The translations under genes and the position numbers were made by a program. 64,000 nt of DNA from NCBI GenBank assembly GCA_964016885.1, contig OZ024755.1, positions 33,666,001 to 33,730,000 of the forward strand, in the 5' to 3' direction. The notes below the pieces were generated by a model that saw only the letters and a program-made list of their open reading frames with translations, was not told the origin of the DNA and did no database searches. The DNA is from Eledone cirrhosa. Its lineage: Eukaryota. Shown here piece by piece: positions 3,233 through 57,505 of this stretch (within the stretch, counting starts at the first letter, position 1; every line of letters starts with the position of its first letter).

Positions 3233-3301
3233 ATTTTATTATGCGCATTTCAAAAACAAATATCATCATGCAATAACATTTGTGTTTTCATCAGATAAAA
3301 T
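3233..3301 (-). ncRNA. Type I hammerhead ribozyme inside a ~260-bp insert (3106-3368) between (TA)n tracts
   Basis: Minus strand: auuuuau CUGAUGA [acaaauguua/ugauauuugu stem II] GAA AUGCGCAU A auaaaau; 7-bp stem I, AUA site. Confidence 0.85.
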
Positions 3302-3928
3302 AGGAAGATATGAAGGTTAAAAACACTTGTGGATAGTGCAATTTTAAATCAACATATATTTTGATCTTATATATATATATATATATATATATATATATAT
3401 ATATATATATATATATATATATATATATACACAGAGAAGGGGAGAGGAAACAAACATATATACACTTGTGTATAAAAGTAGGTGCTGGAAATATACATAT
3501 AAGCATCTGAGAGGAAGTAGAGAAGTAATTTGCCAATTGAAATCTGTTTTGGTAACTATTCCATCGTATATCCTTACGGGGTCGATAAAATAAAGTACCA
3601 GTAATGCACTGGGTAATTGCTGGCCTTGTGCCTAAAGTAGAAACAATTATTACTTTTACATGGCAAATATATCTGATACTAAAACATAGAAATGCTTAAA
3701 TAGAGACTTATTCAAAACATCATTATGCTATTTCTCATAATCATAATTATCATCATCATCACCACAACTACTGCCGGCACTCCAACATCCACCAACACCA
3801 CCATTGGAATTAGAAGCAGCGCAGCACAACAACAGCGCTTTTGCACATATACACATGCAAGTAGGTTCACATACATGTATGAATGACTCTATGATTGTAT
3901 GGTCTATCTCTCTCTCTATATATATCTA

Positions 3929-4284
3929 TGGAGGCACATGGCTTAGTGGCTAGAGCATTGGCCTTGCAATCGAAAGGTTGTGAGTTCAATTCTCAGACCG
4001 GGTGATGTGTTGTTTCCTTGAGCAAGACACTTTATTTCACGTTACTCCAGTTTACTCAGCTGTAGAAATGAGATGATAGGGACTGGGGTCCCTATCATTC
4101 CACTGCAAAGTGGTCGTGGAGGTGCCAGAGCAAAAAAGCACCCAGCACTCACTGTAAATGAGGTTGGTGTTAGGAAGGGCATCCAGCTGTAGAAATCAAG
4201 CCAGAATCAGTTCCCGTCCCACCCTTGCATGCAGGGAATAGTGGACGTAAAATGAAATGATGATGATGATGATGATGATGATGA
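3929..4284 (+). mobile_element. SINE family A, full length (tRNA-derived head, RTE-A-derived tail)
   Basis: Box A tggcttagtgg, box B gttcaattc, ccttgagcaagacactt body; tail matches the LINE end at ~1660-1729; (GAT)n. Confidence 0.9.
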
Positions 4285-4406
4285 TAGGGCGGTGAATTGG
4301 CAGTATCGGTAGAGGGTCGGACGCCATGCTTTGACGCATAGAGTTATGGCCCTTGTCATTCTGAGTTCAAATCCTGCCGAGGTTAACTTTGCCTTTCATC
4401 CTTACA
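4285..4406 (+). mobile_element. SINE family B, 5' half
   Basis: agggcggtgaattggcagtatcggtag...gttcaaatcc...gcctttcatccttac. Confidence 0.85.
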
Positions 4407-4850
4407 GAGATAACAACTCTTAGTTTCCTTGATGTAAGGTCTGGTTCTTCCAAATCATCTTATGTGTGACTCCTTTCTCCATTAATTGCCAGGTTTATAC
4501 TGGTTCATTCCTGAAGGAGTGGATATGCGAGTGAAAACATTGTTTAAAATGATCTTGTTTGATACAAACGTATCTCTTGCTAACTTCAGAATTTTCTTTG
4601 ATGTTGTGTGTAATCTCAGCCTTATACAGAACGATTTGATATAACATTTCTGTTGGAGAGGGCAGTTCTCTTTAATCTTACAAAAGTAGCTTGGATTTAC
4701 ATCAGGTTTATTCTTTGCAGTAACTTTTGATCTCATAGATGGGCCAAATGAATAGGATATCTTGACAGAATTGTGATTGAATATTTTACTATATCTATAT
4801 TGTGGTGGGAAATGTCTATCTATTAAATCTAGAAACTTTTTAAGGGAAAA
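4400..4850 (-). pseudogene. Penelope-like element ORF remnant: RT C-terminal region, Cys linker and GIY-YIG endonuclease, frameshifted
   Basis: KFLDLIDRHFP...KIFNHNSVKISYS...CKIKENCPLQQKC; in shifted frames VLYKAEI...KRYVCI..DHFKQCFHSHIHSFRNE and RPYIKETKSCYLCK, the layout typical of Neptune-type PLEs. Confidence 0.8.
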
Positions 4851-6020
4851 GTTTAAATAATCCAATTTACCACACCCCTGAAAAATCCAATTTAAACGAT
4901 TAAAAAAACTAATTAAAAGTTTACAATTAAAAATATTCCAATTAAAAATAAACAACAATTAAAACAACAATTCTAAAAATCGAATTAAAAAATCCTTTTC
5001 TATAAAAAAATCCAATTATGAAAAGTCATAGATTCCAATTAAAAAATCAGATTGATTGATTTAATCAAATCAATAAAAAAAACAACATCCCATTAAAAAT
5101 CCCATTACAAATATAAAAAAAACAAATAAAAATCCCATTAAAAATAGGATTAATATATCCAACTAAAAAAGCAAACTTTAAAAAATCAAGTTTAAATGCA
5201 ATTAAAAATCCCAATTAAATAACCTATTTAAAAAACTAATTAAATCAACCAGATATAAAAACGAATCAAAATCAAATTAAAAAATATCCAATTAAAAATC
5301 CCATTGAAACAATAACAATTAAAATAATTCAAATTGACAAATCCCAATTAAAAAGATCAATTAAAAATATCCAATGAAAAAAATTTTAAATATCCAATTA
5401 ATAACTCAAAAAACTAAATTCAATTTTAAAATATCCAAATATAAAAATTCCAATTAAAAACAATCCAATAAAAACCTAATTAAAAAAAATCCAAATAAAA
5501 ACACCAAATTAAAAAAACAATTAAAATAGATTCCAATTATAAAAATCCTATTAAAAAATTAATTTTATTAATCGAATAAAAAATCCAAATAAAAATATCC
5601 ATTTGAAAAAAACTAAAAAAATTCCAATTAATAAATTCAATTTAAAATCAATTAAGAAATCCAATAAAAAGACTTAAAATATACCCAATTAAAAGGAATT
5701 AATATAACAAATTAAAAGAATCCAATTAGAAACTAAATTTTAAAACATCCAAATAAAAACATCCAATTGAAAAAATTCAATAAGCAAATCAAATTAAAAA
5801 CAATTAAAAAATTCAAATTTTAATAATCCAATAAAAAATTTTTTTAAATCATATAAAAATACAAAATTAATTTTCCAATAAAAATATAGAATTAAGAAAA
5901 GTAATTCTGAAAAAATCCAATTAAAAATCCAATTTAAAAAATCTAATTAAACAAATCCAATTAGAAACACTAATAAATTCAACAAAAACATACCAATTAC
6001 AAAAAAATCCAGTTAAAAAT
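4851..6020. repeat. Degenerate A-rich satellite with ~11-13-bp core AAAATCCAATT
   Basis: The motif recurs dozens of times with indels; almost no G on the + strand. Confidence 0.8.
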
Positions 6021-6250
6021 ACAATCATTGGGTATGACACCGTTTTGTATTACTTGGTTTACAATATGGGTGACCTTGGTGTGATCCACCATCCCAGATG
6101 CTTTCAGCATCTTGGGAACTATCCTTGAAGGTCCAGATGTTTTGCCTGTCTTCATATTCTTGATTGCCTTACTTACTATACTACTGCTGACTTGCACATC
6201 TGCTGCCTCTGTTGGGTCAAACTATCCATACATATATCCAATATATATAA
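6021..6250 (-). mobile_element. RTE LINE RT N-terminal fragment
   Basis: SIVSKAIKNMKTGKTSGPSRIVPKMLKA...VIPND resembles the conserved KxGKAxGPDxI..E.LK motif. A similar relic lies at ~18850-19065. Confidence 0.8.
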
Positions 6251-6413
6251 TATCTGTGGTGCCAAATACCAGCTAAAACTGCTAGGCATTGTGGTTGGGT
6301 TTTTACCCCCCTCTCTCTCTCTCTCTCTCTCTCTCTCTCTCTCTCTCTCTATATATCTATATATATATATATATATATATATATATACATATATATATAT
6401 AGAGAGAGAGAGA

Positions 6414-6532
6414 GAGGCACATGGCTTAGTCGTTAGAGCATTGTCTTTGCAATCGAAAGGTTGTGAGTTCAATTCTCAGACCGGGTGATGTGTTGTTTCT
6501 TTGAGCAAGACACTTTATTTCACATTGCTCCA
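6414..6532 (+). mobile_element. SINE family A, 5' part only
   Basis: gaggcacatggcttagtcgttagagc...gagcaagacactttatttcacattgctcca. Confidence 0.85.
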
Positions 6533-55881: not shown

Positions 55882-55972
55882 CTAAATAACTTGCATTTGC
55901 ATTTGCATCTGTCCCCGCTGATATAGCAGTGCATTTAAAGCTTCTTGAGAGATAGTCTTTACTTCGTCTTCT
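55882..55972 (-). CDS. Possible terminal coding exon, unknown protein
   Basis: T-rich acceptor ...tttatgttcag| then a-EDEVKTISQEALNALLYQRGQMQMQMQVI*; phase-compatible with a 35-nt AG..GT segment at 59940-59974. Short and unverified. Confidence 0.25.
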
Positions 55973-56207
55973 CTGAACATAAACACAATACAAATAAATC
56001 TTTAAAGTTGCTACAAATGATAAGACACAAAATAAGTGATTATCTTTCATAGTAATCTTACACACGTACACACGTACACACAAACAACACAACACAGCAC
56101 ATTTTCACACGCACCCTTATATATATATATATATATATATATATATATATATATATATATATATATATATATATATATATATATATATATATATATATAT
56201 ATATATA

Positions 56208-56545
56208 GAGGCACATGTCTTAGTGGTTAGAGCATTGGCTTTGCAATCGAAAGGTTGTGAGTTCAATTCTCAGAGCGGGTGATGTGTTGTTTCCTTGAGC
56301 AAGACACTTTATTTCACATTGCTCCAGTTTACTCAGCTGTAGAAATGAGATGCTAGGGACTGGGGTCCCTATCATTCCACAACAAAGTGGTCGTGGAGGT
56401 GCCATGGCAAAAAAGCACCCAGCACTCACTGTAAATGAGGTTGGTGTTAGGAAGGGCATCCAGCTGTAGAAATCAAGCCAGCATCAGTTCCCGTCCCACC
56501 CTTGCAAGCAGGGAAAAAGTGGACGTAAAATGAAATGATGAATGA
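56208..56545 (+). mobile_element. SINE family A, full length, between (TA)n tracts
   Basis: Family A consensus. Confidence 0.9.
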
Positions 56546-56622
56546 TATATATATATATATATATAGAGAGAGAGAGAGAGAGAGAGAGAGAGAGAGAGAG
56601 AGAGAGAGAGAGAGAGAGAGAG

Positions 56623-56741
56623 AATAGGAAAAGGTATGACCCCGACGGCAGAGCTCAAGCCGTTTCGACGGCTATTTCTAGTCCAGAAATAGCCGTCGAA
56701 ACAGCTTGAGCTCTGCCGTCGGGGTCATACCTTTTCCTATT
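56623..56741. repeat. Near-perfect palindrome, ~57-bp arms, 5-nt loop
   Basis: aataggaaaaggtatgacc...gctatttct agtcc agaaatagc...ggtcataccttttcctatt; one mismatch. Confidence 0.95.
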
Positions 56742-57208
56742 ACCCACTCTACTACCCCAAGTATCAAATACTCTGGTGCGTTATGGTCCATCTGGTTCCT
56801 TACCACAATTCCTTAGTTATATATAGAGAGAGATTTTGAGTATATGTTGGTTGTTTACCGATACTTCAGTATGCAGACTGGAGCACTCGACGAAGTATGC
56901 AGGTTGGTTTGTTTACTCTGGAGTAAATTCCAGTTCCTCAGAGGAATAACAACACAACCAGGAACTGGACATATCGATGGATTGACGGAGTAAAACACAC
57001 CTCAACAACATGTGTAGCTGTCTCTCCCACACCAATTCGGACTGCATGAAGAGGTCACAGCCAATGATGGCTGTCACTGAAATATATATAGCAGTATATC
57101 TATAATTAATAATAAATGAACCCAAATTTTACATATTTGACTTAATTATTTCATATATATATATATATATATAAATAAAATAACAGGAGGGTGGACTGGT
57201 GTAAATCC

Positions 57209-57284
57209 TCGAAAGGTTTATTATACTATGATCATTTCAATGACAGGGTTCCATATGAATCCGGTGATATCATCAGGTATTCGA
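57209..57284 (-). ncRNA. Hammerhead ribozyme, mirror copy in left arm
   Basis: tcatcag at 57270-57276, atgatcat-ttc at 57228-57238. Confidence 0.72.
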
Positions 57285-57429
57285 AATATAACAAAGGAAT
57301 ATGTAAAAACCATGGGTCCGAAAAATCAGAGACAGAGAGGACGACTGACCAACTGTAAAAGTTGGTCAGTCGTCCTCTCTGTCTCTGATTTTTCGGACCC
57401 ATGGTTTTTACATATTCCTTTGTTATATT

Positions 57430-57505
57430 TCGAATACCTGATGATATCACCGGATTCATATGGAACCCGGTCATTGAAATGATCATAGTATAATAAAACT
57501 TTCGA
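57430..57505 (+). ncRNA. Type I hammerhead ribozyme in right arm
   Basis: ucgaauac CUGAUGA [accgg...ccggu] GAA AUGAUCAU A guau-(bulge)-ucga; AUA site at 57487. Confidence 0.78.

Follow-up and report, generated by a model that had tools for sequence, protein, structure and literature searches.

The stretch analysed here, called the window below, is 64 kb of the Eledone cirrhosa genome (contig C15, 33666001-33730000; genome size 3.0 Gb). It is AT-rich (34% GC) and rich in microsatellites, and it holds nine hammerhead ribozyme sites with an intact core, which belong to seven families. A preliminary description of this DNA had pointed to five strings of eight bases that stand directly after GAA, are self-complementary and are each followed by A. 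All five were located, and they represent five of the seven intact-core families; a site with a 10-nt stem III followed by C and one with a 6-nt stem III followed by U had been omitted. The motifs are quite probably type I hammerheads at the fixed 3' ends of truncated repeats, in which a self-complementary stem III lets two copies form an RNA-cutting double hammerhead.

The family A motif (F1) occupies 3232..3302 on the minus strand, with the 8-mer ATGCGCAT-A at 3240-3251, stem III AUGCGCAU, the site AUA and a predicted cut after position 3240; it is part of a 5'-truncated repeat (3187-3357). Family D (F4; 24791..24922, minus strand; ACGATCGT-A at 24801-24812) has stem III ACGAUCGU and the site GUA, and its repeat extends from 24734 to 24939. 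The 3' arm of stem II is shorter in this copy than in its family. Family C (F0; 48779..48844, minus strand; ATATGTAT-A at 48787-48798) is found in a repeat at about 48729-48916 and combines the site AUA with stem III AUAUGUAU, which would form central G-U pairs in a dimer. Family B (F3; 49141..49232, plus strand; ACATATGT-A at 49215-49226) has stem III ACAUAUGU and the site GUA, within a repeat at about 49106-49303. Family E (F2; 57434..57491, plus strand; ATGATCAT-A at 57476-57487) has stem III AUGAUCAU, the site AUA and a repeat that occupies 57360-57544 and extends on to about 57686.

The core CUGANGA ... GAAA ... UH is present in type I order at all five sites, and stem I is in register with it (8, 10, 8, 6 and 4 bp in families A, D, C, B and E). 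In the same order, the stem II domains measure 36, 93, 31, 61 and 31 nt, and the first stem II pair is mostly AU, UA, AU, GU and UU. The long domains lie at 24813-24905 in D and 49154-49214 in B, and they reach 116 nt within family D, so short descriptors would miss such motifs. Each 8-mer spans A15.1 to U16.1, and the next A is H17 (numbering as in Cervera and de la Pena 2014). The first A and the last U of each 8-mer are therefore the core pair A15.1-U16.1, which leaves six free bases.

A blind scan was run on 1.264 Mb, made up of the window and 120 ten-kb stretches (8 adjoining the window and 112 at round coordinates on C1-C14). The descriptor fixed the core, scored stem I and left the content of stem III free at 2-18 nt. 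At the strict cut-off there were 57 matches, 39 of them with an 8-nt stem III, versus 0, 0 and 0 in block shuffles and 1, 1, 0 and 1 with scrambled cores. With the relaxed descriptor and a score of at least 4, the sample gave 174 matches versus 11, 15, 14 and 10 in four controls. For clustering, 478 relaxed matches were used with stem III masked (180 from the sample and 298 from targeted loci). Motifs seen at two or more loci were counted as families, of which there are 27, and single-locus matches were kept out of the family counts. Stem III is 8 nt long in thirteen families and self-complementary in every one of them, in 11 purely by Watson-Crick pairs, and these families use nine distinct words. 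Both inner pairs are kept in 9/9 words versus a permuted mean of 1.88, with 0/100,000 permutations reaching nine, and the centre pair alone, which occurs as AU, UA, GC, CG and UG, gives p = 0.0008; since the nine words are related by descent, these permutation figures overstate independence, a caveat to be held against the dimer account. Among copies in families at two or more loci, 61/65 eight-nt stems are self-complementary versus 295/3800 (7.8%) background GAAA-N6-UH sites. In a five-row alignment of the window motifs, 20/20 cells pair and three of the four pairs show double changes, a result matched by 2/500 shuffles. The view that structure is conserved while sequence varies is borne out by these counts, as is an enrichment of palindromes among the sampled copies.

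Could the pattern be chance, or a reader's selection in AT-rich, microsatellite-rich DNA? The core dictates two of the eight bases, five of the seven intact-core window families had been picked, and one of the words, AUAUAUAU, is similar to the (TA)n background. Rfam at gathering thresholds gave no match in the window, and of 22 matches with E up to 1 in window 23000-25200 none is a hammerhead. The scan and its seven controls, together with the 61/65 count, have already refuted this explanation, to which we give practically no credence; GC-rich palindromes such as ACCGCGGU and ACCAUGGU also exist.

Across families, stem III ranges from 4 to 17 nt, and 8 nt followed by A is the commonest class, not the sole one. 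The claim that A always follows the 8-mer does not hold: among the 13 eight-nt families, ten have A at position H17, two have U and one has C. In the remaining 14 families, stem III measures 4 nt (1), 6 nt (4), 9 nt (3), 10 nt (2) and 16-17 nt (2), with one doubtful family each at 7 and 12 nt. Among them, 4-nt (1/1), 6-nt (3/4) and 10-nt (2/2) stems are palindromic, the 9-nt stems are not (0/3), and the 16-17-nt stems are hairpins. Two observations stand beside this census. The abundant 6-nt family F5 (e.g., L047:9075/9214 and L134:939/2449) carries AGAACU or AGGACU, its dimer would have tandem A·A or G·A mismatches, and five of its copies lie downstream of Neptune-like open reading frame (ORF) fragments, at listed distances of mostly 420-520 nt. 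Further self-complementary 8-mers, ACUCGAGU-C and AUGAUCGU-A, occur outside the family table at L305:1877(-), L313:1877(-) and L312:2201(-).

Nearest-neighbour energies place the 8-bp homoduplex at -2.2 to -14.1 kcal/mol versus +1.9 to +4.7 kcal/mol for the best monomer hairpin, which has 2 bp and a tetraloop. An 8-bp intermolecular stem III had been put forward in the preliminary description; it is indeed predicted to be far more stable than the monomer hairpin, but the dimer model as such was already published. The accompanying statement that a monomer would need a 2-nt loop was mistaken, as 2 bp with a 4-nt loop are possible and are the usual metazoan type I layout in the passages of Cervera and de la Pena (2014, PMC4209133). 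On this layout the motifs could cleave mainly as monomers, aided by a tertiary contact at stem II, and the palindrome would be optional or inherited. In the literature passages, an axolotl motif of the same build shows some monomer cleavage; the axolotl motifs are, however, far better cleavers as dimers. Whole-motif evaluation places the folded monomer slightly below the open form for B (-13.2 vs -12.1) and D (-21.0 vs -20.6), whereas A, C and E fold about 2 kcal/mol above it. Most copies are solo, and a mismatch at stem II position 4, which is kept in the 8-nt class, could be a docking site. A tetraloop, however, need not be self-complementary, yet the inner pairs co-vary in all nine words. 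Cleavage mainly as monomers appears improbable to us. Unconstrained folding of single motifs does not return the active fold, with weak z-scores (-2.0 to +1.3), from which nothing can be concluded for a three-way junction. When seven family B copies were folded as an alignment, stem I and an inner hairpin were recovered but the basal stem II was not.

The carrier repeats were studied by genome searches for each of the five families. These gave 41-49 scored matches among 328-3033 candidates, and the best 30 loci were used, a choice biased towards intact copies. The 8-mer and its A are unchanged in 29, 28, 29, 28 and 30 of the best 30 copies of A, B, C, D and E. The 3' ends are mostly fixed about 65-70 nt past GAAA in A, C and E and about 75-100 nt past it in B (D not included), and the 5' extent is variable. 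(TA)5 is found at the 3' end in 20/30 (A), 20/29 (B), 8/30 (C), 14/30 (D) and 14/29 (E) copies, i.e., 27-69% versus 9.6% in the background.

Families A, C and D are tied to Hydra-like Penelope reverse transcriptase (RT)/GIY-YIG genes on the same strand, i.e., three of the five families. Upstream of the hammerhead, on its own strand, a Penelope-like endonuclease was located at 16/30 family D loci and at 5/30 family A loci, the latter including the non-contiguous remnant of the window itself; the 30 loci each of B, C and E showed none. In family A, the terminal-repeat site follows a Penelope RT/endonuclease ORF at L278 and L280, and the distance downstream of the Hydra-like endonuclease is about 0.9-1.1 kb at other loci. 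L280 carries an inverted family A copy, an RT ORF and a second family A hammerhead. Sister copies of family C with the word AUAUAUAU lie 1.2-1.4 kb downstream of Hydra-like ORFs at L148 and L274. The linked ORFs show DKT, YRDD, CxCX5C, YIG, CxxC and CxH at L039 and L074, RWK and DKT at L275, and DKT at L280. The earlier assignment of the motifs to Penelope-type hammerheads is supported. The Hydra-clade traits found here comprise (TA)n insertion, 5' truncation, inverted partial copies and the motifs DKT, RWK, CxCX5C, CxxC and CxH. A 727-aa open frame of a Penelope-like RT and endonuclease at L039:2-2182(+) has no Pfam match at E 0.01.

In an endonuclease tree built from this genome's endonucleases (23 rows, 21 of them different), A, D, C and F9 lie on separate, homologous lineages; the families separate, and the branching order is not resolved. 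The ribozymes had been taken to be unrelated, which conflicts with the homology of the linked endonucleases and with the stem I common to window families A and C, which differ in the palindrome alone.

Several candidate parent genes were rejected. The frameshifted remnant of a Hydra-like Penelope linker/endonuclease at 4450..4841 on the minus strand is not contiguous with the family A copy and belongs to a family other than A. The endonuclease at L294, considered for family B, belongs to a nearer hammerhead, and a further search for the parent ORF of B found none. The Neptune-like ORF at L272, considered for family E, ends before the family E unit starts. Elsewhere, family E forms the end of a 1.9-kb head-to-tail tandem unit with no long ORF (L276:3406-5326 and L271:5475-7422). 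This unit is probably non-autonomous and is a candidate for a large non-autonomous Penelope derivative.

Other same-strand tandems were found as well: beside the family E array at L276 (1,920 bp), they occur at L134 (family A, 639 bp) and at L083, L087 and L108. At L087:4212-9766(-) and L108:1408-2581, arrays of 525-556-bp units carry a hammerhead with the 10-nt palindromic stem III ACUAAUUAGU; these arrays are retrozyme-like.

In the DNA itself, the core, stem I, a stem II that pairs in the family majorities, the palindrome with its double changes, the fixed 3' and variable 5' ends, the inverted partial copies and the (TA)n flanks are all present, and the published dimer model agrees with the features of these motifs. 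In a tandem source element, one RNA would carry both hammerhead copies. The two 8-mers would pair antiparallel and give a shared stem III, so that the GAAA of each copy would work with the UH and the stem I 3' arm of the other. Cleavage would then free a unit-length template for reverse transcription. Palindromes would come to differ between families through compensatory changes, in which the sequence drifts and pairing is kept.

A number of points weigh against the dimer account. A same-strand partner within 6 kb was found for only 20/141 sampled family copies, 10 of them in one array, and 38/141 copies have an inverted partner only and 83/141 are solo, counts that are limited by the 10-kb stretches. 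Palindromes are absent from some abundant families (6-nt AGAACU/AGGACU, 9-nt ACC-NNN-GGU and the 16-17-nt hairpins), and a perfect palindrome is thus not required of every element here. Families B and E are without a linked ORF. Pfam and solved-structure searches of the linked Penelope-like ORFs gave no match, so the clade assignment rests on motifs. Cleavage in this genome is a prediction from sequence, and a look through sequencing runs for a family E stretch listed no RNA, a result without bearing on expression. For minimal motifs, only low dimer activity in vitro is given in the passages of Cervera and de la Pena (2014, PMC4209133). The reading of the motifs as dimer-forming hammerheads is still likely. 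As for the window copies, none has a same-strand partner of its own family within the window, and they are likely dead or inert insertions.

The preliminary description also suggested that a family-specific palindrome serves as a self-recognition code. In this form, the palindrome would be a selected code that keeps co-resident families from forming mixed dimers. A mixed dimer requires cross-pairing in stem III as well as in the two stem I helices. Among the 78 family pairs, complete cross-pairing over the 8 bp of stem III is possible for 8, cross-pairing of both stem I helices for 4 and the two combined for 2, and mixed dimers between families are predicted to be rare. These low counts speak for a code, as do families A and C, which, with the same stem I, are told apart by the palindrome. 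Moreover, a literature search on Penelope hammerhead heterodimers found no paper. The palindrome is, however, neither unique to a family nor the main discriminator. The 13 families use nine words, a smaller number than expected if each were drawn uniformly from 64 (p = 0.013), four words are each common to two families, and the two words of family F0, AUAUGUAU and AUAUAUAU, fully cross-pair. The median penalty of hetero- over homodimers is 7.9 kcal/mol for stem III versus 12.1 for the two stem I helices, and the mixed stem III of A and C still forms 7/8 pairs (-1.5 vs -2.2 kcal/mol for the C homodimer). Drift alone predicts the incompatibility of diverged families, and cis tandems need no partner choice. 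Because a palindrome is not confined to one family and stem I tells families apart better than stem III does, selection for a code is unlikely, and we rate it as highly improbable. Drift with compensation explains the palindrome pattern, and any family specificity would arise as a side effect of stems I and III drifting together.

A second regularity concerns stem II. By family majority, it pairs at positions 2-3 and mostly at 5-8, counted from A9 and G12, with a mismatch at position 4. C·C occurs at this position in 6/13 eight-nt families vs 0/14 others (Fisher p = 0.006, a post hoc test on related families). A pyrimidine-pyrimidine mismatch is found there in 9/13 eight-nt families vs 3/14 others and in 5/5 window families, and the pairs adjoining it co-vary. 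One single-locus motif has G·G at the same position. Shared ancestry may account for part of this pattern. The mismatch is undescribed in the passages of two of the matching Penelope hammerhead papers, whose texts were not searched for it.

With regard to abundance, the 112 dispersed stretches on C1-C14 (L039-L150) contain about one hammerhead motif per 9 kb. From the 123 family copies in them, a genome total of ~330,000 motifs was extrapolated (bootstrap 240,000-430,000), of which ~144,000 (96,000-198,000) would have an 8-nt stem III; this sample excludes the chromosome-scale contigs C16-C28 and small contigs. It is conceivable, if rather doubtful, that the 8-nt class is a distinct dimer-hammerhead architecture, in which the position-4 mismatch replaces the loop-loop contact as docking site and which comprises more than 100,000 copies in a dozen or more families, almost all of them orthogonal to one another. 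If this is true, one genome would hold a natural set of selective ribozyme dimer pairs, with orthogonality provided by stems I and III. A tertiary contact at the stem II mismatch, should there be one, could account for cleavage without the usual loop-loop interaction.

The window contains further hammerheads. An inverted, more truncated family C copy (48927..49003, plus strand; ATATGTAT-A at 48934-48945) retains GAA, stem III and the stem I 3' arm only, without the CUGANGA core. An inverted copy of the family E hammerhead lies at 57223..57280 on the minus strand (8-mer at 57227-57238; repeat at 57170-57354). Two sites are those omitted from the preliminary description. The site at 23210 (23202..23251, plus strand) has the 10-nt stem III ACAUUAGUGU, self-complementary with G-U pairs, and the cleavage site GUC. 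The site at 58075 (family F15; 58072..58106, plus strand) has the 6-nt stem III AGUACU, the cleavage site CUU and a stem I that is weakened in this copy; its inverted partner is at site 58009 (57978..58012, minus strand). Decayed hammerheads are found at 57041..57099 on the plus strand (family F10, stem III AUAUAUAU-A, first core base altered), at 49306..49380 on the minus strand (family F8, 16-nt stem III) and at 58367..58474 on the plus strand (family F28, 9-nt class). A CUGAAGA...GAAA match at 34386-34430(+) has no convincing stem I and was taken as chance. Between 56927 and 58474, hammerhead-bearing ends of at least five families are packed into 1.6 kb with (TA)n between them; the arrangement suggests that elements inserted into the same microsatellites more than once.

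Both the dimer model and the palindromic stem III are known already; what is new here is the families, not the principle. Penelope-like hammerheads with a short stem III reportedly cleave as dimers, to judge from the title of a 2017 paper by Lunse, Weinberg and Breaker and from the reviews citing it; the 8-nt class or the mismatch in stem II may be described there already. The present genome lends itself to asking whether Penelope hammerheads are active in vivo and in what way. It offers young near-identical families, a co-varying palindrome centre, the natural pair of families A and C and a very high number of motifs.

A close known system is the hammerhead of Penelope-like elements, for which a dimer model and the consensus 'GAAAN Palind NU H' are set out in the passages of Cervera and de la Pena (2014, PMC4209133). 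Common to both are the type I topology, the CUGANGA/GAAA core, the palindromic helix III, the position in Penelope terminal repeats (here for A, D and the sister copies of C), the mostly solo or inverted copies and the many families per genome. Positions 15.2-16.2 with loop 3, palindromic by their definition, are so in 13/13 eight-nt families and in all 20 window cells. In the Drosophila willistoni row of their Fig. S3, an 8-nt palindrome followed by A seems to be present on our own reading, the GAAA block being missing from the text. In these passages, the published motifs mostly have a loop-less 4-nt stem III, a G10.1-C11.1 pair and a stem II of 7-8 bp. Here, in contrast, 8 nt is the commonest size, stem II usually starts with a pair other than G-C, two window families have stem II domains of 61-116 nt, and position 4 of stem II repeatedly shows a pyrimidine mismatch. 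The strict minimal form, which has no loop 3, an extra base after A9 and a G10.1-C11.1 pair, fits only F17 (ACGU).

Palindromic stem III/loop III sequences of several ribozymes are also the subject of the Fig. S8C legend in Perreault et al. (2011, PMC3088659). As here, they differ from each other, and they are read as allowing a double-hammerhead helix; the drawn example is a 10-bp stem from Aedes, and the passages are without a link to a Penelope clade. Passages of two reviews on Penelope hammerheads (PMC6765202, PMC6466107) likewise describe a palindromic short loop III, tandem arrangement and dimer cleavage.

As for the genes, the Hydra clade of Penelope-like elements with a C-terminal endonuclease inserts into (TA)n and carries hammerheads, according to the passages of Craig et al. 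(2021, PMC8557442). The likeness extends to DKT (not DKG), RWK, the CxCX5C linker, CxxC and CxH, to (TA)n insertion and to partial tandem and inverted insertions. The clade is presented there with a modest number of families from aquatic invertebrates, whereas one genome here contains several very abundant lineages, placed by motifs.

Retrozyme dimers are treated in passages of Cervera and de la Pena (2020, PMC7229834) and de la Pena (2020). According to the passages of the former and of Li et al. (2026, bioRxiv 10.64898/2026.07.22.740005), metazoan non-LTR retrozymes are, similarly, non-coding tandem units with type I hammerheads; they show a weak palindromic helix III in amphibians and dimer-enhanced cleavage, and a Penelope origin has been proposed for them. 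Their unit of ~150-450 bp compares with 1.9 kb for the family E tandem unit, and the window copies are dispersed 3' fragments. The largest motif count in the literature passages, 126,247 in axolotl, is below the range of 240,000-430,000 extrapolated for Eledone cirrhosa.

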